From: an uncultured Candidatus Peribacteria bacterium
GTDB lineage: Bacteria; Patescibacteriota; Gracilibacteria; Peribacterales; Peribacteraceae
DNA: 64,000 nucleotides
Direction: 5' to 3'
Assembly (NCBI GenBank): GCA_964611095.1
Contig: CAZSWJ010000001.1
Span: 31,735-95,734, forward strand
Part shown: positions 9,333 to 54,926 of the stretch, one piece after another
Position numbering within the stretch: position 1 is the stretch's first letter
Layout: each line of letters starts with the position of its first letter
Made by a program: the position numbers and the translations under genes
The notes under the pieces: generated by a model
What the model saw: only the letters and a program-made list of their open reading frames with translations
What the model was told of the DNA's origin: nothing
The model's database searches: none

Positions 9333-10289
9333 ATGGAACTCTTCACGACCATCAGAAACGGCACGACACGGATGACGGACATCGCCCGCCGTCACCAGCT
9401 CCTCACGCTGACGATCGTGGCATTGCTTGCTGCCGCGGGCTCGGCACGGTTCCTCACGGGCCAATTGGTCCCGAGCAACACGAGCGTCACCGCGGGCACG
9501 TCGTCATCCAGGCCCGAAGACCTGCGCGTCTGCGACGACTCGGTGACGATTTTCAAGGACGACCGCACGCTCGAAAAAGCGATGAAACGTTTGAAAGAAC
9601 GCATGTCGGGCATCGTCGATGAACGCGAAAAATTCTTCCGCACGCCGTCGGAGTGGAAGTGCGGACCGAACCAGGAGCCGTCGTTCCCGCAACTTGACCG
9701 ACTCGCCGACGATCTTCCCGGTTGGCACTACCAATTCACGCCGTCGGGCCAACTCGATTCCCCCATCGCCCTCAAGAAGCCCGTCACGTTCGACGCATTC
9801 TCGGCCGTCGCGCTCGAATTGCAACGTGAGTACGAGTGCAAGCTCACCAAGTTCCAGGACGGCGTGATCGGCGAAGTGGGCGTGAACGAAGACGTCAGCG
9901 AGCCCACGCAGTTCTGCTGCCAGACGCAAGGCGGCGAAGACAGTTGCGTCGTGAAAACCCCCGAGACCGTGTGTGCGGGTGCCGCCACGGAAGATCCGCA
10001 ATGCGACGATCAATGCAAAGTCATCCTGTTCACGACCGATTTGACGACGCGTCCCGAGGTCTACCACTTCGAACAAACCGTCGAACGCCAGCGCTCGCGC
10101 CTGGCCTTGGAGCGCACCCTCCAGACGCTGCGTTCGTTCGAGATGAACTACATCGTGGCGCGTCAGCTCATGTGTTACCAGCGCGCGTCCCTGGACCTGA
10201 AGAATGAGCTCAACCTGCTCGCCGACACCACGAGCTGCATTCCGAAAATCTGGAATGCCGTCACGTCCATCCACGATCCCAAGCAATGA
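9333..10289 (+). CDS. N-terminally anchored Cys-rich protein, unknown function
   Basis: ATG 9333 is 5 nt after the upstream stop. TM/signal anchor LLTLTIVALLAAAGSA. Cys clusters such as QFCCQTQGGEDSCVV. Confidence 0.7.
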   Translation: MELFTTIRNGTTRMTDIARRHQLLTLTIVALLAAAGSARFLTGQLVPSNTSVTAGTSSSRPEDLRVCDDSVTIFKDDRTLEKAMKRLKERMSGIVDEREKFFRTPSEWKCGPNQEPSFPQLDRLADDLPGWHYQFTPSGQLDSPIALKKPVTFDAFSAVALELQREYECKLTKFQDGVIGEVGVNEDVSEPTQFCCQTQGGEDSCVVKTPETVCAGAATEDPQCDDQCKVILFTTDLTTRPEVYHFEQTVERQRSRLALERTLQTLRSFEMNYIVARQLMCYQRASLDLKNELNLLADTTSCIPKIWNAVTSIHDPKQ

Positions 10290-12124
10290 AACGCGCCCTT
10301 CTCCTCATCGGCGTTCTTGCCGCGGCGCTTCCCGTCGGTGCGCTCGCGCAACAAGATCCGGGGATTTACGACATGTTCTACGGCGAGGCCGACAGTGCGA
10401 GGTTCAACGCCAAGCCGTCCGAAGATCTGTCCAAGTACCTCATCAAAGAGATGGAGCACTGGCAGACGCGAGGCATTCAGCTGACGTCCGATGATCTTAA
10501 GTCCGCGATCAACGGAAACTTGTGGAACGGCGACGGCACGGGGCTGTGCCAGAACAAAGTCGACATGTCGGGCAAAGCATTCGACTTCGTCGCCGGCGGC
10601 ACGGACGGCGAAAGCTCGTGCATCGTGCTCCAGCAAAACATTCTCGGGCTCCTGCGCTTCGAGCAATCCATCGATCAGCTCGGCAGCGACCTCATCAGCA
10701 TCGCGAACGGCGCGGAGCTCGCCGTGGCCGATGAGCCGCATCGCCCCGTCGACATGGCACGCGTGGCCATGACGCTGCGCCGCGTGTGGATGGGCACGGG
10801 AGCCGCCGTCATTCCGTGGAACGGCGATGCCGATTCCGAAATCGGTGAACTGGAAAATCATTTGAAGTCCGCGGAGAGCAAGGAAAAAATCGTCATGCGA
10901 TTCCGTCACGGGTACTTCCGCGATCAGCGTGAGCAAGATTCGCGCTTCGACGGCATCGGTGACGAGGTGAAAGAAGATCTTAGGAAAATCGCCGAGAAGC
11001 TGCAGATTTCGGGCGATCCGCTCATCGTCGGCATGTTCTCCGTGCCAAAGTTGAAAGTGCCGAATATCGGTTTGTGGGCCCGTAAAGACGACATCGGTTT
11101 GATGTGGGTGTATCCGTCCAAAGTCACGCGCTTCACGTACGAGCCCGCCAAAACCGAGTATCCCAAACTCGTGCAGAACGGCCAATATTTGGCCTACCCC
11201 TTCGCCTACGAAGGGTCGAATCCGCCGAGCGGTGCCGGGATCACATCGCCCGTCTGCAGCCGCATGATGGGACGACAGGGTTACCTGTGTCGCACACTCC
11301 CGCCGCTCAGTGAAAATTGTTCGCGCACGGGGGACGACTCCGCGATTTCGCTCACGAAATGTTCGGAAGGAGAGGAGCAAACGGTGAGCGGGCCTTTGGT
11401 GTGTCCCGGCTTCGACAAGCTGTTCAAGGACACGGGTGTTCCGCTCGCCGACCCCAACAATCCCGGCCGTCTGAACCCCGCGCTGCAGCCCGCCGATACC
11501 CAAGTGCTGTGCAACCCGGAGACGCGCACGCTGTACCAGGACGACATCACGTCGCACGCGTGCTACATCGGCCACTGCCTGGTGCAATCCATGACCAAGG
11601 GCAACACGCTCATCCCGAACAGAAACACCGTCGTCTTGAACGAAGCCACGTCGCCCTACCTCGCGTGCCAGCGCATCGATCCGCAGGTCGGCATCTACAC
11701 CGAAGTCGCCAAGGAAGGCCCGTATCCGCTGCCCGAATACTTGGGGCAGTTCCTGGTGCAAGACTTCGACCGACAGTACTGCGCCAGCAACGGCAACGCG
11801 CCCGAGTCGCTGCCGTCCTTGTGTCGCTTCCTCGACAACCAAACCGCCGCGCTTCCCGACTACGTGCCCCTGTTCCAGGCCATGGCAACGAGCGGCGAAC
11901 AGAGCCGCACCGATCTGCGCCGCATCGCGGTGAACGAGATCGCATCGGCCATCGGCCAGCGCGTGGCGGTGGATCAATCCATCGAAGTGCAGCAGAAAAT
12001 CTTTGCGCGCCTCGCGCACTTCGTGCAGCAGGTCGCCGATCTCGTCCTGGAACTCGACCGAGCTCCGGTCACGCAGACCGCGTGTCCATGGACCGGACCG
12101 TTTGAAACCGTCACGCCGTTTTAG
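10286..12124 (+). CDS. Secreted Cys-rich protein, unknown function
   Basis: 612 aa. ATGA overlap with the upstream stop. Signal MKRALLLIGVLAAALPVGALAQQ. CYIGHC motif at 11561-11578. Confidence 0.8.
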   Translation: MKRALLLIGVLAAALPVGALAQQDPGIYDMFYGEADSARFNAKPSEDLSKYLIKEMEHWQTRGIQLTSDDLKSAINGNLWNGDGTGLCQNKVDMSGKAFDFVAGGTDGESSCIVLQQNILGLLRFEQSIDQLGSDLISIANGAELAVADEPHRPVDMARVAMTLRRVWMGTGAAVIPWNGDADSEIGELENHLKSAESKEKIVMRFRHGYFRDQREQDSRFDGIGDEVKEDLRKIAEKLQISGDPLIVGMFSVPKLKVPNIGLWARKDDIGLMWVYPSKVTRFTYEPAKTEYPKLVQNGQYLAYPFAYEGSNPPSGAGITSPVCSRMMGRQGYLCRTLPPLSENCSRTGDDSAISLTKCSEGEEQTVSGPLVCPGFDKLFKDTGVPLADPNNPGRLNPALQPADTQVLCNPETRTLYQDDITSHACYIGHCLVQSMTKGNTLIPNRNTVVLNEATSPYLACQRIDPQVGIYTEVAKEGPYPLPEYLGQFLVQDFDRQYCASNGNAPESLPSLCRFLDNQTAALPDYVPLFQAMATSGEQSRTDLRRIAVNEIASAIGQRVAVDQSIEVQQKIFARLAHFVQQVADLVLELDRAPVTQTACPWTGPFETVTPF

Positions 12125-35296: not shown

Positions 35297-35382
35297 GCCG
35301 GGGTGGCGAAATGGCAGACGCATCAGCCTTAGGAGCTGACGGGAGCAATCCCATGGAGGTTCAAGTCCTCTCCCCGGCACCA
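35297..35382 (+). tRNA. tRNA-Leu (anticodon TAG), CCA encoded
   Basis: Cloverleaf read by eye: acceptor GCCGGGG/CCCCGGC, anticodon arm TCAGC-CTTAGGA-GCTGA, long variable arm, TTCAAGT T-loop. Confidence 0.85.
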
Positions 35383-35616
35383 TCAGACTTTCATCCACGT
35401 CAGTTCGCCCAAGCCGCCGTCTTCGCCGACGGGAAGCGCGATGCCGTACATGCCGCCCTTGTCGATGATCATGAATCCGTACGTGCGTTCGTCGTGCATG
35501 AAGCACTCGTCGAACAGAATCTCCGGTTCTTCGGCGCCACGGATGTGTTCCAGCGCGTACCGCAGGATCGGCTCCTTGTACTTTTCGGCCATTGCTTTGG
35601 GTGAGAGGAGTTCCAT
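35383..35616 (-). CDS. Small acidic protein (77 aa), last gene of the calpain-like operon
   Basis: ATG 35616 is 7 nt after the upstream stop. Begins MELLSPKAMAEKYKEPILRY. No recognised family. Confidence 0.5.
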   Translation of the reverse strand: MELLSPKAMAEKYKEPILRYALEHIRGAEEPEILFDECFMHDERTYGFMIIDKGGMYGIALPVGEDGGLGELTWMKV

Positions 35617-35623
35617 ACGTGAG

Positions 35624-37243
35624 TTAGGTGAACATTTTTTTGTAATCGATGGTGGCGACGTCGATGCCGACGAATCCGCGAAGCAATTGGTCATACGTGA
35701 GCTTGATCGGTGCCCCGCTGTTGTGCGGATTGATCACGGTGACGGTTCTGGCCTGCGCATTCACGTTCGTGAGTGAATAGGCGTGATTGTGATAGAACGA
35801 ATGACCGTCGATATCGTACTGCGTCGTGTCGTCTTTCGGACCGCGAAGACTGCTCAAGTGCACGAGGTGCTTGCCGTTCGAGAATCGATTCAACATCGCT
35901 TCGACTTTGCCTCGATGCACCTCGAGGTTATACGTGCCCTTCATCACGTCGCCGTTTTGATTGTTCTTGCTGCGGTTCTGCTCGGGATTCGCCCGCGTAC
36001 CCCACAAACCTTCCGTTCCATGGCCTCCCATCATTTCGGCGAGTGCGATCTCGGACCGTCCTCCGGAAGTCTTCTCCCGGTTCATGCCGCCGGTCCTCAT
36101 TTTCGTGAACGCGGCCTCCAGGAGCTTCCAGCCTTCCGCGGCATTCACGGGTTGGAGCTTCTCTCCCTTCGCGGTGGTTTGAAGCTCATTCATTTCCTGC
36201 TTCGTCACGACGATCTCCCGTCCATTTTTCATGCCGAGAGGGATGCGTACCGCGTAGGAGTCGCCGTTCTTCTTGATCGATGTGCGGAGGATCGCATCGG
36301 CGTGATCGAAACGTTGGAGCGAGACGAACGTGGCGATGAGGTAGCAGTTGCCCACGTTGGCCTGCCTGATGTCGTTGCCGAACAGCTCCGCGTATTCGTC
36401 CTCGCTGAGCGTCGCATGTTTTTCCAAGTACTCGGCTTTGCGCCTGCCGAAGTCCGCACCGATATCTTTGGGCGTCGTGATCTGGTCGAACTTCTTCTGG
36501 CCCGTTTTTTCGATTTCTTCGGTCGTCCAAATTTTGGGCATTCCTTTCTCATCGAGGGGCACGTCTTTTACGGCGATCTCCCAGCCCTCATCAATGTTTG
36601 TGATGACGTACGACGCACCCTTTTTCATGACGATGCCCTTCTCCAGAGCGTCGCCACGCCGAACGTAGACCTCACGGCCCTCCTCCTGCACCGTCCTCAT
36701 GCGGTTGTCATACCGCAACTGTCGGTCCTGCTCGGTTTCGGTACCCATCACTTCCTGCATGTTCATGCGCACCGCCTCGTAGCTCACATCGGCGTTGCCG
36801 AGCGCGCGCGCCAGGTTGCCGCGAAGCTTCTCCGATTGCTTCGCCAGGTCGAGGACGTCCGCTCCGTTCTTGTTCAGTGCTTCGCGGAGCAGCGTGATCT
36901 GCGGAGCGAATGTCGCCTTCACGTTGCGCACGTCATTCAGAGCATCTTTTTCACGAGCAAGCGTTTGTCGAAGCGCCTCGCGGTGCGATCGGTTGAACGG
37001 GTTCCAGGACGAAAGATTGTCGAGGTCTTTCTGCGTGTCGGCGATGTGTTTCACGTACAACTCTTCCTTGCGTTTGAGCATCGCATCCAGGTCATCCAAG
37101 CTCTGTACGACGCTTTCCTTCAATTTGCCGAATTTCGCCTCGATTCCGTCAAGTAAGCCCGGCTTGCTTTTGTCGGGAGCGGATTCTTTCGTCGGCCCCG
37201 AGGGGGCGTCCGGTCTTTTTTCAGCCTCATTTTTTTTTGGCAT
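35624..37243 (-). CDS. Calpain-like (papain-fold) cysteine protease domain protein
   Basis: From ATG 37243. Ordered triad motifs NVGNCYLIA (Cys codon 36344-36346), HNHAYSL (His about 35783-35785) and VINPHN (Asn about 35729-35731). N-terminal coiled coil, no signal peptide. Confidence 0.65.
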   Translation of the reverse strand: MPKKNEAEKRPDAPSGPTKESAPDKSKPGLLDGIEAKFGKLKESVVQSLDDLDAMLKRKEELYVKHIADTQKDLDNLSSWNPFNRSHREALRQTLAREKDALNDVRNVKATFAPQITLLREALNKNGADVLDLAKQSEKLRGNLARALGNADVSYEAVRMNMQEVMGTETEQDRQLRYDNRMRTVQEEGREVYVRRGDALEKGIVMKKGASYVITNIDEGWEIAVKDVPLDEKGMPKIWTTEEIEKTGQKKFDQITTPKDIGADFGRRKAEYLEKHATLSEDEYAELFGNDIRQANVGNCYLIATFVSLQRFDHADAILRTSIKKNGDSYAVRIPLGMKNGREIVVTKQEMNELQTTAKGEKLQPVNAAEGWKLLEAAFTKMRTGGMNREKTSGGRSEIALAEMMGGHGTEGLWGTRANPEQNRSKNNQNGDVMKGTYNLEVHRGKVEAMLNRFSNGKHLVHLSSLRGPKDDTTQYDIDGHSFYHNHAYSLTNVNAQARTVTVINPHNSGAPIKLTYDQLLRGFVGIDVATIDYKKMFT

Positions 37244-39413
37244 CCGGCCTCGAGCCTTCGGTATCCGGGGGGCCTGCTTTGGCAGGTGGCTTGTCCGGTG
37301 CTTTCGCCTTGGCCGCAACCTCTTTCATGTCGCTTATGAAGCGCTCGAATTCAGCGACATTCATCGGATTGCTCGACGCTTTCCCCGTCGTCGTATCGAC
37401 ATTCGGGAGGAAGCGGTTCGTATTGATGGCGCCGATCACCGGGTTGAGCAGGGCTGCTGCGATCGATCCTTGATCCAGGGAAACGACGATTTTTCCTTCA
37501 CCGTTCAGTTCCACCTTGATGGCTCCGATGACGTCTTTGGCCGTCTTCTCCGGCAGGTTCGCCTTCAGGATCTCGTCGATATCTTTCTTCAATTTCTCCA
37601 CGTCGGGCTTCGTATCGCCGCCCTCTTTCTTATCGGCGGGCTTGTCACCGGCGCCCTCCAGTTCCTTCACGCGGGCTTCCAGCTCTTCGCGCGTTTTCTT
37701 CAAAGCTTCCAGGTCCTTTTTCTTCTGCGCGATCTCTTCGTCGATCTTCGGCTTGGCTTCGGCCTTGGTGTCCGGGTTCTCCTTCTGTTTCTCGAGCGAC
37801 TTGATGTCGTCGGCGAGCTCACCTTCTTTCTTCTTGGCTTTTTCGATGCCTTCTTTCGCAGACTTCAATTCGTCGCGTCTTTCTTCGGGCGTCATCTCAC
37901 CGGCGGGCCTGGGGCCTTCGGCGCCTTTGCCTCCGGGTCCCTTGATGTCCTCGCCTTTCTCGCCCTTGCCTCCCTTCTTGCCGAATGCTTTGTCGATGAC
38001 TCCTTTGATGAAGCGGATGAATCCGAAGAGGTACAGGAACGGACGCACGTCCTTGTCGGCCATGACGATCTTGCCGCCGTCGATGTCGCTCTTGTCCAAA
38101 TCCACGCCCTGCATCATGAGGAGGCCTTCGGCCACGTCGATGTCGGTTTCGGTCTTGGCTTCGCGGCGGAGTTTCACGAGGCGCGCGATGGTCGCCTTGT
38201 CGGCGACGTCACCGGCCTCTTTCGTGGTGACGGTGACGCTGTTTCTGCTCTTCACCGCGGCACCCATGACTTTTTCCAAGAAAGCCTTTGCGGACGGCGT
38301 CATTCCCTTTATGAATTCGATGGCCTTGCCCATCGGCGTGTCGGGCGTGGCACTCGTCGGCAACGGTTCGGGCAGCTTGATGCTGCCGTCGGGGCCGATG
38401 AGTTTGCCGAATGCGCTGAGAACGTCAGCCGGCATTTTGGCAACGCTCTCGAGCGTCGTGCGAGCTTCCGCAAGTTCCGCTTCGGACATGCCTTCCACCA
38501 CCGTCACCGCAGCCTCCTGGATCTCCTTCGGGAGAGCACGAATCGCTTCCGCGGTTTGGGGATCGACGTTTTTGAGCGATTGTTCAAGATCGAATTTCGT
38601 CGTCGGTCCCTCCGATGCCTGGAAATCGATCGACTGTCCGTCCGAGCTCGTCGTGGTCGTGGTATCCGTGCTTTCGTCGAGCGGGAGGCCGGACCTCTTC
38701 AATGCTTGCAAGTGCGAGAGTTCCTCGGTGACTTTCACGCGCTCTTTCATCAGCTGGCCCAGTTTCGGGCCGTATGCTTCAATTTCCTGCGCCGAGAGCC
38801 TTGCCAGCATGAGGTTGATTTCCGGAGTGCGGTTGTAGCGAGAGCGGGCCGATCCCATCTGCGCCCTGTATTCGGCACCGGCACGAGTGAGTCCGTTTCC
38901 CGTTCTGCCTCTGCCGAGGAGAATGTGAATTTCCCAGTTGATGCGATTGAGCTCCTGCGCGGTTTTAGCGATTTTGTTGTCGAGTGCGCTGGGCTGACGT
39001 TCCACGGGAGCCCTGTACTCGCCGAAGTCGAGCCGCCCGTTCGTGATGCTGGCGTGGAACCCGTGAGGGTGGGCCACGTTCCTGTTGAATGACTGCAGTT
39101 CCTGCTTCACGAGCTCAGGCATGTCGCGCAATCCTGCGATTCTCTTTCCCAAGTCCTGTTTCACCTGTTCCATCTGCTCTTCTTTTGTCCCTTCGGTGCG
39201 TGCGTTGCGATCCTTGGCCTCTTTGCGAACGTCGGTTTCGGTCCTCTCGGGACTGTCGGCATTCGGCTCGGGAGCATCCGGAACGTCGGGAGCTCCTCTC
39301 TTGCCGGCTTCCGTGCGTACGTCGGCATCGGGCGTTTCTCCCGCGTGCAGCAAGCGCGCCTCGGCGAGACCGAGATGCGGGAATTGCCGGTGCAGGGAGC
39401 GAAGGAATTCCAT
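37227..39413 (-). CDS. Large charged protein (728 aa), unknown function
   Basis: Long ORF with a K/E/D-rich coiled-coil C-terminal half and no signal peptide. The antisense ORFs here are Arg/Ser/Phe-rich shadows. Confidence 0.7.
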   Translation of the reverse strand: MEFLRSLHRQFPHLGLAEARLLHAGETPDADVRTEAGKRGAPDVPDAPEPNADSPERTETDVRKEAKDRNARTEGTKEEQMEQVKQDLGKRIAGLRDMPELVKQELQSFNRNVAHPHGFHASITNGRLDFGEYRAPVERQPSALDNKIAKTAQELNRINWEIHILLGRGRTGNGLTRAGAEYRAQMGSARSRYNRTPEINLMLARLSAQEIEAYGPKLGQLMKERVKVTEELSHLQALKRSGLPLDESTDTTTTTSSDGQSIDFQASEGPTTKFDLEQSLKNVDPQTAEAIRALPKEIQEAAVTVVEGMSEAELAEARTTLESVAKMPADVLSAFGKLIGPDGSIKLPEPLPTSATPDTPMGKAIEFIKGMTPSAKAFLEKVMGAAVKSRNSVTVTTKEAGDVADKATIARLVKLRREAKTETDIDVAEGLLMMQGVDLDKSDIDGGKIVMADKDVRPFLYLFGFIRFIKGVIDKAFGKKGGKGEKGEDIKGPGGKGAEGPRPAGEMTPEERRDELKSAKEGIEKAKKKEGELADDIKSLEKQKENPDTKAEAKPKIDEEIAQKKKDLEALKKTREELEARVKELEGAGDKPADKKEGGDTKPDVEKLKKDIDEILKANLPEKTAKDVIGAIKVELNGEGKIVVSLDQGSIAAALLNPVIGAINTNRFLPNVDTTTGKASSNPMNVAEFERFISDMKEVAAKAKAPDKPPAKAGPPDTEGSRPDAKKK

Positions 39414-39419
39414 CGTTGA

Positions 39420-39776
39420 TTACGATTGGGTCATTTGTTTTTCGATCTTTTTCATCTCGTCCGCTTCGGCCGAGCTCACCAGTTCTTCGGCCATCTTCGC
39501 GGAGTCGCGCTTGTAGCCGGCGAACATTTCGTCCCACTCGCGTTTGTACTCGGTGAGGCGTTTGTCGAATTCGGCGAAGGCCGCGGCGTAGCGCTTCACA
39601 CGGACTTTGCGCTGCTCCACGGTTTCGTTCTTCGTGAGCGCACCGACCTTCGGCAAATTCTTGTTCGTGAGTTCGGGTTCGATGCCCTCCATGAGGAAGT
39701 CATAGAGCTCATCGCCGTCCAAGATGGGCGGCGGAGCGAGATAGTCCTCTGTCTGTACCGTCGTGTCAGAAGGCAT
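39420..39776 (-). CDS. Hypothetical protein (118 aa), first gene of the operon
   Basis: ATG 39776 lies downstream of an extended -10. There is a 6-nt gap to the next gene. Confidence 0.6.
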   Translation of the reverse strand: MPSDTTVQTEDYLAPPPILDGDELYDFLMEGIEPELTNKNLPKVGALTKNETVEQRKVRVKRYAAAFAEFDKRLTEYKREWDEMFAGYKRDSAKMAEELVSSAEADEMKKIEKQMTQS

Positions 39777-39798: not shown

Positions 39799-39807
39799 CA
39801 TTGTACC
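39799..39807 (-). promoter_or_regulatory. Extended -10 TGGTACAAT (minus strand)
   Basis: The reverse complement of attgtacca. Followed after 1 nt by the palindrome GTGAGA-N5-TCTCAC (39781-39797), then ATG 39776. Confidence 0.5.
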
Positions 39808-39861
39808 AAAAAACGACAAAAAGAGCAATATATCCCCACCCCATCCGTCCTAGAGATGTTC

Positions 39862-39875: not shown

Positions 39876-41555
39876 ATGAAAAAATTGCCTCTCTCCGTCG
39901 CTTTTGCCCTCGCCGTGCCTGTCGTGGCTCTTGCCATCGACATCGCACCCGGCAACTTCTATCCCGATGTTCGGGAATCGTCTCCGGAAGCCGTGGGAAT
40001 CAACCTTCTGAGCCGTGAAGGCATCGTGAAGGGTTACGCCAACGGCAGCTTCGGTCCCACGCGCCAAGTGAACCGCGCCGAGTTCCTCAAGATCGCCATG
40101 CTCAGTGCGCCGCAGAGCCGCAGGCCGGAGCTTGTGGCCGCGGATTGTTTCCCCGACGTGCATGCCGAGGACTGGTTCAGTCCGTACGTCTGCGCCGCCA
40201 AAGAGGCCGGCATCGTGAGCGGGAACGCCGATCCCAAGCTCCCGCGCGATCAATGGACATTCGCACCCGACACTCCGGTGCAGTACGACGCCGCGCTCAA
40301 AATGCTCACACTCTTGTTCGGTTACGAAATCCACTCATCGAACTCCGCCGATTGGGCCGCGCCGTACTACGATGCAGCCGCCGAGCGCGGGACCGATTTG
40401 CCCACACGCATCCGTTTCGACACGCTGCTCACCCGCGCTCAGGCCGCGCGCTTGGCGGGTGCGTTCTTGGCTGATTCCTACGGAAAACTCACCGAGTACC
40501 GCATGGCCGAAAACGGCGAATACGTCTCGTCATCGTCCAGTTCATCGAGCAGCTCCGTGAGTTCATCCGAGTCGTCATCGTCCTCGTCGGTTTCGTCCTC
40601 CTCTTCATCGTCATCCTCCTCCGCCGCGCTCTTCACGGTTCCGTCCGTCAGTCACTTCCTCGTCGTCGGCCAAGCTTCCGATGCGGTTGCCGACGGCATC
40701 ATCCGCAGCAACGGCGAAACGGCGAAGGTCCTCCGCGGCGAAGTGAAAGTGTTCACCGAAGTGCGTTCCGTCGATCACCTCGAAGTCGTGGACCCCGACG
40801 GCGTCATCGTCATGAAGTTGCTTCGTCGCGTGAACACCGACATCTCCGATTACAAGCTGACGTTCGAGGCGCAGGTGGATCCGAGCATCGCTTACACCTT
40901 GGCCCAGGACAAAGACGTCCGCTTCGTCCTCCGTGCCGTCATCCGCGACGTGAACGGCGGAGGTTTTGCCGACGAACTCCTGCAGGTCCGCACGTTCAAC
41001 GTCACGATGCGCGGAGACAGCGTCCATGAAACCATAAACAAAGCGTTCACGGGTCCGTTCCCCAAGCACCAGACGTCGTTCGGTCGCATCAAGTCCGTCA
41101 CGCGCGTCACGCCCGCAGCGGCTCCGCTCCAGCGCGGCAGCGGCGTTCTCGTCAGCACGTTCTCCTTCAGCGGTTCTACCGTCGGAGGCAGGTCGCTCTC
41201 GCTCACCGATCTCGTCTTCACGCTGAGCAAGACCGGCACGATCACCGCCAAAAATTGGTCGCTCGTTCGGGGTAATCTCACGACGCCGTGCAGCATGAAC
41301 GAAGCTCTGACGCTCGTGACGTGCTCGCCGCTCAAGCCGAGCGGCATCGGAGCCGTCCCCGCATCGGGAGCGTTCGCCCTCGATCTCCGTGCCGACGTCG
41401 CCACCCCACCGAGCACCGCGGCAAGCTTGCGTGCCGATCTCCTCACCGCGGGTTCTCCCGAGTCTCTCGGCAGCGCGTCGTGGACCGATGAATCCGGCAT
41501 GTATAAGTGGGTGGAGGGTCCCTCTCCTCTCGTCACGGGAACACTTCTTCAGTAA
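39876..41555 (+). CDS. SLH-domain surface protein with poly-Ser linker
   Basis: 559 aa with a signal peptide. SLH-like repeats (FYPDV..INLLSREGIVKGY; FPDVHAEDWFSPYVCAAKEAGIVSG). 32-residue Ser tract at 40527-40622. Confidence 0.75.
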   Translation: MKKLPLSVAFALAVPVVALAIDIAPGNFYPDVRESSPEAVGINLLSREGIVKGYANGSFGPTRQVNRAEFLKIAMLSAPQSRRPELVAADCFPDVHAEDWFSPYVCAAKEAGIVSGNADPKLPRDQWTFAPDTPVQYDAALKMLTLLFGYEIHSSNSADWAAPYYDAAAERGTDLPTRIRFDTLLTRAQAARLAGAFLADSYGKLTEYRMAENGEYVSSSSSSSSSSVSSSESSSSSSVSSSSSSSSSSAALFTVPSVSHFLVVGQASDAVADGIIRSNGETAKVLRGEVKVFTEVRSVDHLEVVDPDGVIVMKLLRRVNTDISDYKLTFEAQVDPSIAYTLAQDKDVRFVLRAVIRDVNGGGFADELLQVRTFNVTMRGDSVHETINKAFTGPFPKHQTSFGRIKSVTRVTPAAAPLQRGSGVLVSTFSFSGSTVGGRSLSLTDLVFTLSKTGTITAKNWSLVRGNLTTPCSMNEALTLVTCSPLKPSGIGAVPASGAFALDLRADVATPPSTAASLRADLLTAGSPESLGSASWTDESGMYKWVEGPSPLVTGTLLQ

Positions 41556-51743: not shown

Positions 51744-52226
51744 TCACAAGCTTATTTCTCTCACGTGCGATGACGAGAGATCAGTCACGACCTTTGCGTA
51801 GCGGTCGAGGGCCGTGGTCTTTCGGCCGTGCTCCAAGAGTGAAACGCACGGCCGCACGAGATCGCTCCACAGTGCGCGGTACTCCTGCTCCGGCAAGCTG
51901 CACGCATCGATGCGTGCAATGATCGCGGGGGCGATTCGGTAGTACCGCTGCACGAGTGCGATGCCTCCGGGAGTCCGAACGACATACTCGTCGCGGAATT
52001 TCCGGAGCGTGCGGAGCTCATGGCAATCGTCGGGCAACCCGCGAGTGACGACGCATGCCGTCGTCAGAAAGCAACAGCCTGGAGGTTCCGCATACTCGTC
52101 CCAAACTCTCCCTGTCTGCCGACATATCGTGCAGGGGACGAGCACACTTTCTTGATGGCTTTCGGCTGGGGCTATGCGCACCCAACCTTTTCCATCGCAG
52201 TTCGAACATGGTACGTGCGCACCCAT
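51744..52226 (-). CDS. DnaJ-type zinc-finger (CxxCxGxG x2) protein with CFLTTAC...DDCxELxxLRxFRD module
   Basis: 160 aa. Strong SD AAGGAG 7 nt before the ATG. Paralog of 54021..54494. Confidence 0.75.
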   Translation of the reverse strand: MGAHVPCSNCDGKGWVRIAPAESHQESVLVPCTICRQTGRVWDEYAEPPGCCFLTTACVVTRGLPDDCHELRTLRKFRDEYVVRTPGGIALVQRYYRIAPAIIARIDACSLPEQEYRALWSDLVRPCVSLLEHGRKTTALDRYAKVVTDLSSSHVREISL

Positions 52227-52300
52227 AGTTCATCTCCTTCAACATAAGCCTGTGATGCCAAGCCCCTTGCGGGGAACTCCACGATGTAGAGTCAAATAGT

Positions 52301-52328
52301 AAAATACTATCAAATTTACTTAAGTCAA
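52301..52328 (-). promoter_or_regulatory. Candidate promoter TTGACT-N16-TATTTT
   Basis: On the minus strand upstream of the copy-A gene. Conserved in copy B. Confidence 0.4.
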
Positions 52329-52377
52329 TAAATCACATCATTGATACCGCTATTGATCATTTTTTTAAAAGCCGTCG

Positions 52378-52436
52378 CGTCAAAGCGACTCTTTTGATGG
52401 AAAGGAGAGTCCATGAGAGGAAAACGCAGTTTTCCT
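52378..52436. repeat. Partial third copy (~59 nt) of the cassette-end element
   Basis: Matches 53839-53898 with about 3 mismatches. It abuts the DKNYY gene stop codon. Confidence 0.75.
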
Positions 52437-53477
52437 TTACTCAGGCTTCTGCCAACTACTAGGGTCAAAGCCATCCGGACTAACGTTCGGGATCGGTTTT
52501 CCGAGATAAAAAACGTGTTTCTTATCTGCGGCAAAGTACTTTTGATCGGGTAGCAAGTGAAATGAATTGGTATCAGCATCAACAACAATAAAAGAATTGC
52601 ATGCCTTTCCTTGTTCGATGAACGCTGAATTTATTACATATACGCGATTTTTGTCTTTTGCATAATAATCATTCAGGGCTTGAAATGTTTTTGCATCCGC
52701 ATTGTTTATGCGGAGCTGATTACATATAACGCTAGTGTCGTCTTTTGCTAGAAAATTTGTGAACACTACTACTGACTTTGGTGCCAAAATTGTGAGCTTG
52801 CCCTCATAGTAGACATGCATTGAATCATGTGCCCATCCACCTCCTCCACGTATCGAGTTAGTTATTATCGTAAAGGTGTAGGGGTTTGCCTCTTTTAAAG
52901 GCAGATCATCAAAGTACACTTTTCTTAAATCCGTAGAATACCCTGCATTCAGAATTTTAAATTTTTTTGCGTTTGCCCCCCTTAAAATTCTGCCCTCAAA
53001 AAAAATATTTCGGGGGCTTATGCCATATCGCTCACTCTCTTTAAATTTTTTAGGATCGACGCCTCGCAACAGGTGCCAAGAAAAATAAACATGTTTTTTG
53101 TCTTTCGCATAGCTATCCATTAATTCGAAGCTATCTGGATCAGCTAAGGGCAAAATCTTATCACCAACATAAACGTTCTTTGAATCTTTAGCATAGAGAT
53201 TGCCATATTCAAGTACCTTGAAAGTCGCAGGATTTGCATGGGGTACGAGTGTGAGGCAATCCATTGTTGGATCTTTTGCAAGGCAAGAGCTCAAATAAAC
53301 CCTTCCATCAAATTTGTAAAATAAGTACCTATCGTCATAATAATTAAATGGAATATTAAGGGGGATTGGAAGCTCTTGCGCTACAATGCTGTTTGGCTTA
53401 AATGTGAGTAATAGTAGTGCCATTAACGCAGGAAGGACCCTAAGTTTCTTTGACGTTATGAAGTTCATGTAACGCAT
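52437..53477 (-). CDS. DKNYY-repeat family protein, low GC
   Basis: 346 aa. Repeated YAKDKxxVY motifs and a signal peptide. Strikingly AT-rich relative to the window. Confidence 0.75.
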   Translation of the reverse strand: MRYMNFITSKKLRVLPALMALLLLTFKPNSIVAQELPIPLNIPFNYYDDRYLFYKFDGRVYLSSCLAKDPTMDCLTLVPHANPATFKVLEYGNLYAKDSKNVYVGDKILPLADPDSFELMDSYAKDKKHVYFSWHLLRGVDPKKFKESERYGISPRNIFFEGRILRGANAKKFKILNAGYSTDLRKVYFDDLPLKEANPYTFTIITNSIRGGGGWAHDSMHVYYEGKLTILAPKSVVVFTNFLAKDDTSVICNQLRINNADAKTFQALNDYYAKDKNRVYVINSAFIEQGKACNSFIVVDADTNSFHLLPDQKYFAADKKHVFYLGKPIPNVSPDGFDPSSWQKPE

Positions 53478-53945
53478 ATTAGCTCGTATCAGATTGAATT
53501 AGGGACTGGATTTGGCCGCCGAAAATCTTATTGGCCATTTTTTGTTATACGTAAGCCAAAAAATGTGTTCTGTAGTTAAGTAGAACGATATTACAATAAG
53601 GGCTTATCTTATTGCAGGATCACTGTGTTGAAATTGAAATGTATATATAAAAAGCACAATCCTTATTTCCAATACCACTTGAGTGAGATTTATTGAGACG
53701 GTTCTCTTCATTTGCACTGAAATCCTTCACCCCCTTAAGAAGTTTAGTCAGGGTTGGATTATGAGAAGCCATATGTCGTGCGACGCCATCTACGAGACGG
53801 CAAAAAACTGTCGCTTGACGTGGGTCTCGTGGGCCCCACGTCAAAGCAACTCTTTTGATGGAAAGGAGAGTCCATCAGAGGAAAACGCAGTTTTCCTTGA
53901 TGCGATCATTCAAGATTTTCTCGAATGTACTTGGGCAATGGCATC

Positions 53946-53984
53946 AAAAAAACTCCCCGCTCTCTTCGAGGCGAAGAGAGCGGG
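53946..53984 (-). terminator. Intrinsic terminator (minus strand), copy B
   Basis: Same stem as copy A, followed by T7 on the minus strand. Confidence 0.8.
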
Positions 53985-54020
53985 ATAAAACCTCACAGGC
54001 TTCCTCCCTTAGTCGTGATA

Positions 54021-54729: not shown

Positions 54730-54815
54730 TGGCGGAGCCAACGGGACTCGAACCCGCGACCTCTTCCGTGACAGGGAAGCGCTCTAACCATCCCGCGGCC
54801 GCGGGATACGGCTCC
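54730..54815 (-). pseudogene. tRNA-Asp copy whose D-stem 5' half is replaced by the palindrome TCCCGCGGCCGCGGGA
   Basis: Identical to the intact copy except that GCTCAGC is replaced by a 16-nt palindrome (54791-54806). The D-stem cannot form. Confidence 0.6.
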
Positions 54816-54849
54816 ACAGCAAATAGGCTAATAAAGTGTGTGATGAGAA

Positions 54850-54926
54850 TGGCGGAGCCAACGGGACTCGAACCCGCGACCTCTTCCGTGACAGGGAAGC
54901 GCTCTAACCAGCTGAGCTACGGCTCC
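54850..54926 (-). tRNA. tRNA-Asp (anticodon GTC), CCA encoded
   Basis: GGAGCCGTAGCTCAGCTGGTTAGAGCGCTTCCCTGTCACGGAAGAGGTCGCGGGTTCGAGTCCCGTTGGCTCCGCCA folds as a canonical cloverleaf. Confidence 0.9.

Follow-up and report, generated by a model that had tools for sequence, protein, structure and literature searches.

In staphopain-staphostatin operons a clan CA protease is encoded together with a co-transcribed cytoplasmic inhibitor. Papain-like toxins of the Cpe1 (Cpe1-Cpi1) type are likewise paired with small proteins, and their immunity proteins are 79-239 amino acids (aa) long (PMC12136450). Bacterial calpain homologues, surveyed by Rawlings in 2015, are essentially uncharacterised and mostly lack the classical accessory domains; those fused to WXG100 were judged likely type VII secretion system (T7SS) toxins in a reviewer comment in the same article (PMC4631099). 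The locus described here lies in a 64-kb stretch of DNA, called the window, which has a GC content of ~0.59 and comes from a tiny-genome groundwater bacterium resembling Candidatus Peribacter (Peregrinibacteria, candidate phyla radiation (CPR)). The genomes of Ca. Peribacter riflensis are 1.25 Mb long with 58.5% GC (PMC4736985). The locus consists of four minus-strand open reading frames (ORFs), g1 to g4 (Table 1). The third, g3, very probably encodes an active calpain-type cysteine protease, judging from its relatives and its predicted structure. It belongs to a 3' cassette that is exchanged between strains on the conserved head of g2, and within that cassette it is followed by a small acidic partner, g4.

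The motifs NVGNCYLIA, HNHAYSL and VINPHN, from which an earlier note on this DNA had proposed a calpain-like Cys-His-Asn protease, occur in g3 in that order, and the proposal is borne out by the relatives of g3. The only Pfam family that g3 matches is Peptidase C2 (PF00648), at 18.0 bits (E 1.6e-3) and thus below the gathering cutoff of 23.8 bits. Its homologues at loci L015 and L014 exceed the cutoff with 28.0 and 29.1 bits, and 31 of 55 relatives match the family at E<=1e-3 (best E 7.7e-9). Since g3 itself falls below the cutoff and relatives lie above it, its membership of the calpain family rests on transitive homology. A family profile compared with PDB sequences retrieved calpains only (calpains 1, 2, 3, 5, 8 and 9, at E 2.7e-5 to 4e-3), the matches forming three collinear blocks: Gln/Cys, LE(A/K)AY...GG and HAYS...NPW. 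The residues Q294, C300, H487 and N505 are invariant in a five-sequence alignment. Across 139 full-domain relatives Gln294 is kept in 136, Cys300 in all 139 and His487 in 138, with Asn (118) or Asp (18) at the position of Asn505.

The AlphaFold2 model of g3 has a mean predicted local distance difference test score (pLDDT) of 86.2, with values >90 over most of the protease domain. In it a helical region (residues 30-185) is followed by a small beta domain (191-240) and, at the C-terminus, by the calpain-like domain. C300 opens the helix 300-310 and H487 and N505 are on adjacent strands (488-495 and 500-505), a modelled placement of Cys300, His487 and Asn505 that resembles papain-fold enzymes. 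Pfam domains for the calpain beta-sandwich, EF-hand or penta-EF-hand and Ca2+ sites were found neither in g3 nor in the scanned relatives. The small beta domain, which spans residues 187-260 in the sequence and has the consensus G-x-E-V-Y-V...G...E-x-G-W, is covered by alignments to many distant relatives and so forms part of the conserved module. At E<=1e-3 a profile built from the C-terminal 278 residues of g3 matches 1689 cluster representatives, and at the stricter E<=1e-10 it still matches 411. The earlier remark that calpains are rare in bacteria, true in general (PMC4631099), therefore does not extend to this large subfamily. Metagenome-assembled genomes (MAGs) of Peribacteria/Peregrinibacteria supply 14 of the 18 genome loci found with the protease profile, and it is a Candidatus Peribacter MAG that contains the closest named relative of g3.

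The 77-aa protein g4 had been suspected, from its place at the end of the gene row, of being a dedicated partner of the protease, and its distribution bears this out. In 11 Peribacteria loci the protease stop codon is followed, at a distance of -4 to +19 nt, by a homologue of 77-94 aa, a conserved adjacency seen beyond the window at L001, L006, L008-L012 and L017-L019; these small partners match the g4 profile at E 1e-24 to 3e-31. A g4 homologue was not found where the cassette has no protease (L024, L026). Partner identity and protease identity are correlated (Spearman 0.54 over 55 non-independent pairs), the partner usually diverging faster. None of the database homologues has a Pfam domain or a name other than "hypothetical". 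The AlphaFold2 model of g4, built with database homologues, has a pLDDT of 93 and consists of one helix packed on four strands. In a Foldseek search against the PDB its best match had an E-value of 0.36 and a template modelling (TM) score of ~0.4, and a domain of unknown function (DUF) described as "cystatin-like fold" ranked 10th (E 0.73). The g4 profile found nothing below E 0.68 among PDB sequences, and g4 itself has no Pfam match. From this genomic pattern g4 can be taken with good confidence to be a specific partner of the protease; whether it acts as the inhibitor is, on sequence grounds, an even call.

The cassette to which g3 and g4 belong is defined by comparison with related loci. 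Database relatives of g2 number only three. One of them, P0154 (1195 aa, locus L024), is 71% identical to g2 in its residues 1-600, after which comes an unrelated C-terminus of 600 aa that is rich in repeats. The gene order at L024 (SLH protein, g1 homologue, 1195-aa gene, tRNA-Leu, APS kinase; SLH, S-layer homology) is the same synteny as in the window, and both g3 and g4 are missing there. In a blastn comparison with L024, homology breaks off at window position 37648 (g2 codon ~589) and picks up again exactly at the tRNA, which is 98.9% identical; in place of the window cassette L024 holds 1.8 kb of unrelated sequence. At the distant metagenomic locus L026 the order is SLH protein, g1 homologue (40% identity) and a 635-aa protein that resembles g2 but ends in a third, short tail; neither the protease nor g4 is found there. 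The g2 head is 24-30% identical to this 635-aa protein in two segments. The window, L024 and L026 thus have three unrelated C-termini at the same locus under a shared head. This is an exchangeable cassette on a conserved head, with at least three alternative 3' cassettes, one of which is carried by the window.

The 728-aa K/E-rich protein g2 had been listed as being of unknown function. It has no Pfam, NCBIfam, PADLOC or PHROG match and no PDB sequence relative, but its first ~588 residues can now be described as a conserved head that bears variable C-terminal modules. The protein g1 gave no match in Pfam, NCBIfam, PADLOC, PHROG or PDB-sequence searches. Homologues of g1 stand directly before the large protein at L001, L024, L028, L005 (36% identity) and L026. 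A metagenome scan with g1 as query returned two loci and one with the g2 head returned no match; relatives of g1 or g2 were not found at other protease loci outside L001-L005, L024-L026 and L028. The L024 cassette (9800-11588, P0154 residues ~600-1195) contains about six divergent repeats, each ~95 aa long, in which the pattern W-x-Y...DG..W recurs; Pfam gave no match to it, a tandem-repeat scan at the DNA level was empty, and the cassette could be a binding module.

Finer exchange is seen between the window and the sister strain at L001, whose alleles form a mosaic. The two DNAs are 95-100% identical except in two blocks of 47-85% identity, one covering the N-terminal third of g2 (39390-38460) and the other the protease domain (36720-35650). 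The synonymous divergence (dS) is 0.045 in g2 residues 319-728, 0.9 in the N-terminal block of g2 and 1.6-1.8 in the protease block. The ratio of nonsynonymous to synonymous divergence (dN/dS) is 0.12-0.20 within the two blocks and 0.04-0.24 everywhere, with values of 0.08 for g3 residues 55-175, 0.16 for the protease domain, 0.04 for g4 and 0.06 for g1. The size of the blocks, ~1 kb each, and these values point to imported alleles and not to hypermutation, and the blocks appear, by their substitution patterns, to be imported allelic variation under purifying selection. A diversity-generating retroelement or positive selection as their origin was ruled out on the same figures. Within the otherwise conserved head, then, the N-terminal third (g2 residues ~20-318) is also allelically variable.

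The relation between g2 and g3 appears to be closer than that of two neighbouring genes. Their junction reads GCC-AAAAAAAAA-TGA, with g3 in the +1 frame relative to g2, and one continuous ORF of ~1265 aa results if the transcript has A8 or if a +1 shift takes place at AAA-UGA. The predicted junction peptide of such a fusion would be ...SRPDAKKNEAEKRPDAPSGPTK. The A9 run is the sole A/T run of nine or more in the 64 kb, where ~0.5 would be expected. A homopolymer sequencing error was ruled out, as A9 is identical in six independent assemblies. L001 has ACG in place of the g3 ATG, which leaves the amino acid in the g2 frame unchanged. Over the ~240 nt compared past the junction, L001 differs by three substitutions, all synonymous in the g3 frame, and one of them sits upstream of the first in-frame Met. 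The stretch before this Met holds the pattern KLKES...L.D.D, which is conserved in the L005 and L006 proteins, and these proteins read through the position equivalent to the junction. The cassette border falls inside g2 and not between g2 and g3. A linker rich in Pro, Lys and Ala precedes the g3 module. The dN/dS values of g3 55-175 and of g4 are as low as that of g1, and both are therefore taken to be expressed and constrained. That g2 and g3 behave as one unit, fused as a ~1265-aa product, could well be so, at slightly less than an even chance from these sequence comparisons.

Two further candidates at the junction were set aside. The ATGA overlap is ruled out as the start of g3, its ATG being in the third frame, where it opens an ORF of 35 codons. 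The likeness of the g2 C-terminus to the N-termini of the L005 and L006 proteins is a low-complexity linker resemblance only. Expression by slippage on A-runs occurs in bacterial insertion sequence (IS) elements, in Thermus dnaX and in the poly(A) tracts of endosymbionts, and +1 frameshifting at a stop codon occurs in prfB. The g2/g3 junction is like the A-run systems in that the A9 run lies exactly where the frames meet and one A fewer, or a +1 shift, makes the ORF continuous. A difference is that the re-pairing from AAA to AAU on which a +1 shift depends is imperfect here. Gene callers split or truncate g2-g3, the sister-strain g3 being called from an internal Met.

Among relatives the protease domain is regularly the last module of a long protein. 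It ends 20 residues or less from the C-terminus in 140 of 151 relatives, whose host proteins range from ~300 to 2769 aa; the carriers in Peribacteria genomes have 667-2685 aa. The N-terminal parts of the carriers mostly contain no Pfam domain, and a few have a protein kinase, FHA or LysM domain. Many carriers have internal membrane-like or glycine-zipper-like segments, and of the 30 hydrophobic segments flagged only 3 fall within the first 60 residues. In P0010, P0016, P0020, P0024, P0059 and other relatives of 1000-2769 aa, segments such as ILAAIAVATAVIVTIIASC and ALFAIGIGIGGLAID, strongly hydrophobic or glycine-zipper-like, occur hundreds of residues from the N-terminus, and their sequences suggest that the carrier inserts into a membrane. 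At the locus L005 (1-6056) the arrangement is different: a 598-aa protein is followed by a g1 homologue, then by the protease protein, 830 aa long, and last by a 217-aa protein unrelated to g4. The 290-aa N-terminus of its protease protein is unrelated, and the constant neighbour there is g1, not g2.

A constant head, an exchangeable C-terminal enzyme and a small gene that travels along with it fit polymorphic toxin/immunity loci and protease-inhibitor operons. The reading preferred here, which is given about even weight, is that of a strain-variable polymorphic effector locus with an inhibitor or immunity partner. In the proposed mechanism g2 and g3 would be joined into the ~1265-aa polypeptide in a fraction of the products, either because RNA polymerase slips on A9 and makes the A8 transcript or because the ribosome shifts by +1 at AAA-UGA, and the protease would thereby be placed at the C-terminus, as it is in the relatives. 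In the cytoplasm of the producer g4 would bind the protease and keep it inactive, in parallel to staphostatin with staphopain or to the immunity proteins of papain-like toxins. The head, aided by g1, would carry the protease to the cell surface or beyond it, and there it would cleave the proteins of a host or of a competing cell. That the effector is exported in this way is held more tentatively than the reading as a whole.

A number of observations weigh against a polymorphic effector locus. Searches with Pfam, NCBIfam, PADLOC and PHROG and a hydropathy scan found no recognisable signal peptide, trafficking domain or secretion-system gene in g1, g2 or the neighbourhood. In some relatives there are protein kinase or FHA domains of the sort typically met in intracellular signalling. 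A partner is missing after the protease in seven more distant loci (L005, L007, L014-L016, L020 and L021), and g4 shows no detectable similarity to a known inhibitor (cystatin, staphostatin, chagasin, calpastatin). Between the window and L001 g4 is 97% identical and the protease domains 63-65%, which is not the co-variation expected of allele-specific immunity. As regards fusion, g3 in the window has an ATG, and TTG codons at -25, +40 and +48 in L001 allow separate translation. When the full 539-aa model of g3 was compared with the PDB by Foldseek, there was no calpain in the top 50 and helical matches dominated; the best protease matches in that search were C39 papain-like domains, weak ones with a probability of 0.93-0.95 and E ~0.05.

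Several of these points would be accommodated if g3 were an intracellular regulatory protease, the main rival of the effector reading although a rather unlikely one. In that case g3 would carry out limited proteolysis of proteins of its own cell, g4 would be its regulator or adaptor by a calpastatin-like logic, g1 and g2 would be scaffold or substrate-recruiting partners, and nothing would be exported. The four proteins indeed lack signal peptides and secretion domains, in some relatives the protease domain is joined to a protein kinase or FHA domain, and g4 is almost unchanged between two divergent protease alleles. Sister strains, however, have non-protease C-termini at the same site, which makes the protease dispensable and exchangeable and is atypical for a housekeeping regulator. 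The fixed C-terminal place of the domain in very long proteins, many with membrane-like segments, is also easier to reconcile with surface or delivered proteins.

Two other readings, self-processing and gene decay, are given less weight than the regulatory protease. Clostridial large toxins and MARTX toxins have cysteine protease domains of the self-processing kind, and a C-terminal protease might similarly cleave its own carrier (g2 or the fusion) for maturation or release, with g4 delaying the cleavage. This is improbable. The domain is consistently at the end of long proteins and the linker ahead of the g3 module, rich in Pro, Lys and Ala, would suit such cleavage, but the short family members (~300 aa) leave little to process, no payload domain is recognisable in g2, and the known releasing peptidases of polymorphic toxins are upstream of the payload, not at the extreme C-terminus. 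The frame break at a homopolymer and the loss of the g3 ATG in L001 could instead mean that a former single g2-g3 gene was frameshifted in the A-run and that g3 and g4 are no longer expressed. Such decay is very improbable given that g3 and g4 are intact in both lineages under constraint similar to that on g1 (dN/dS 0.08, 0.16 and 0.04 for g3 55-175, the protease domain and g4), that the catalytic residues are kept and that the six assemblies carry an identical A9.

The four minus-strand genes announced in the earlier note (118, 728, about 539 and 77 aa) were all found, as was their tight spacing: g1 and g2 are 6 nt apart, g2 and g3 overlap by 17 nt, and g3 and g4 are 7 nt apart. The composition counts agree with its descriptions of the large protein as K/E-rich (K+R 16.5%, D+E 17.3%) and of the last one as acidic (D+E 19.5%, net charge -7). 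A Kyte-Doolittle scan likewise upheld the absence of signal peptides, as there is no hydrophobic N-terminus in g1-g4 and the top 19-residue mean, 1.52, is internal to g2. The suggestion to look for the four-gene arrangement elsewhere was also productive: identical order and synteny of the four ORFs were recovered in independent assemblies of near-identical and sister strains (L001-L004 and L028). The term four-gene operon is right as to four real ORFs, but they probably make up three functional units, in view of the A9-TGA junction, the ATG missing in the sister strain and the long-protein relatives. As for the extended -10 promoter, the consensus match TGGTACAAT is present, but no complete sigma-70 site turned up when the region was scanned for two-hexamer promoters. 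TGGTACAAT sits in a 99-bp divergent intergenic region shared with the gene for the SLH protein, and the intergenic block that contains it is 97-100% identical in the sister strain.

Table 1. Features of the g1-g4 locus, in coordinates of the 64-kb window.
Feature	Coordinates	Strand	Description
g1	39776..39420	minus	ORF, 118 aa, acidic
g2	39413..37227	minus	ORF, 728 aa
g2 conserved head	37648..39413	minus	Residues 1-588; invariant block with hydrophobic motif PFLYLFGFIRFIKGVI; K/E-rich coiled coil
g2/g3 junction	37227..37238	minus	A9 run then g2 stop (AAAAAAAAATGA)
g3	37243..35624	minus	ORF, 539 aa counted from ATG; 564 aa from upstream TTG
Protease domain	35627..36460	minus	Calpain-family (C2-like), g3 residues ~262-539
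Gln294 codon	36364..36362	minus	Putative oxyanion-hole Gln, six residues before Cys
Cys300 codon	36346..36344	minus	Predicted catalytic Cys
His487 codon	35785..35783	minus	Predicted catalytic His
Asn505 codon	35731..35729	minus	Predicted catalytic Asn
g4	35616..35383	minus	ORF, 77 aa, acidic
Exchangeable 3' cassette	35384..37647	minus	g2 codons ~589-728 + g3 + g4; bounded by tRNA-Leu
tRNA-Leu(TAG)	35297..35382	plus	ARAGORN and Rfam; convergent with operon; 3' end abuts g4 stop codon
Extended -10-like motif TGGTACAAT	39808..39800	minus	Read from sequence; 24 nt before g1 ATG

The locus is flanked on one side by the SLH protein gene and pyrF and on the other by the tRNA-Leu, an APS kinase, a cytidylyltransferase and an ABC-2 transporter. 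The divergent SLH-domain protein (39876-41555, plus strand) has a long poly-Ser tract, and its gene borders the locus of g1 and the head in all syntenic relatives, including the distant L026. PADLOC and PHROG scans found no defence-system or phage family and there is no integrase among the flanking genes, so a defence island or prophage is unsupported. Elsewhere in the window, positions 52001-54000 form a low-GC island (0.42 vs ~0.59 elsewhere) with an ORF (52437..53477, minus strand) for a 346-aa DKNYY-family protein (Pfam E 5e-51); this island may have been acquired horizontally. Positions 54730-54926 hold two tRNA-Asp(GTC) genes in tandem on the minus strand; one copy may be degenerate, given an Rfam score of only 30 bits for the second.

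The protease superfamily and the toxin/immunity-like logic are known already. New are a large protease subfamily, recovered mainly from Peribacteria/Peregrinibacteria genomes so far, the unannotated g4 partner family, a tRNA-bounded cassette exchange on the g2 head and the conserved A9-UGA junction. A protease domain of ~280 aa with a candidate inhibitor of 77 aa, both confidently modelled, is a compact pair for biochemistry. The interactions of CPR bacteria with hosts and neighbours are little understood, and a strain-variable locus with exchangeable C-termini is a concrete candidate for them. With its conserved A9-TGA junction the locus is also a simple case in which slippage-dependent expression can be studied in a lineage that has not been cultivated. 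An unlikely, more far-reaching picture is that the Peribacteria have a polymorphic effector system of their own, made of a g1 "escort", the head and swappable tRNA-side cassettes, in which one widespread cassette would hold a calpain-type protease, neutralised by an undescribed inhibitor family of ~80 residues and attached to its carrier, in a controlled share of the molecules only, by programmed A9-UGA slippage. If that were true, one locus would combine a recoding event with a calpain inhibitor fold and a delivery route that are both new.

Compared with known systems, g3 is like calpain C2 (PF00648) in its collinear blocks, Q-x-N-V-G-N-C-Y-L-I-A, LEAAF...GG, H-A-Y-S and N-P-H/W. Unlike in typical calpains, the domain of the g3 family is strictly C-terminal, has a helical region and a small beta domain ahead of it and comes with a small partner gene. 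The pair g3-g4 differs from staphopain-staphostatin in that g3 has neither a signal peptide nor a staphopain-type prodomain and g4 matches no PDB entry, staphostatins, cystatins and chagasin included. It resembles that system in having a papain-fold protease gene followed a few nt later by the gene for a small protein without a signal peptide. Polymorphic toxin systems differ in several ways. A known trafficking domain (PAAR, Rhs, VgrG, CdiA, LXG or WXG100) was not found in the locus and no secretion-system genes are nearby. Orphan cassettes were not seen, the partner barely differs between two divergent protease alleles, and the protease module is split from the head by a frame break. What the locus has in common with polymorphic toxin/immunity systems is that the N-terminal part stays constant while strains exchange the C-terminus, that a protease takes the last place and that a small gene directly downstream is present only alongside the protease.

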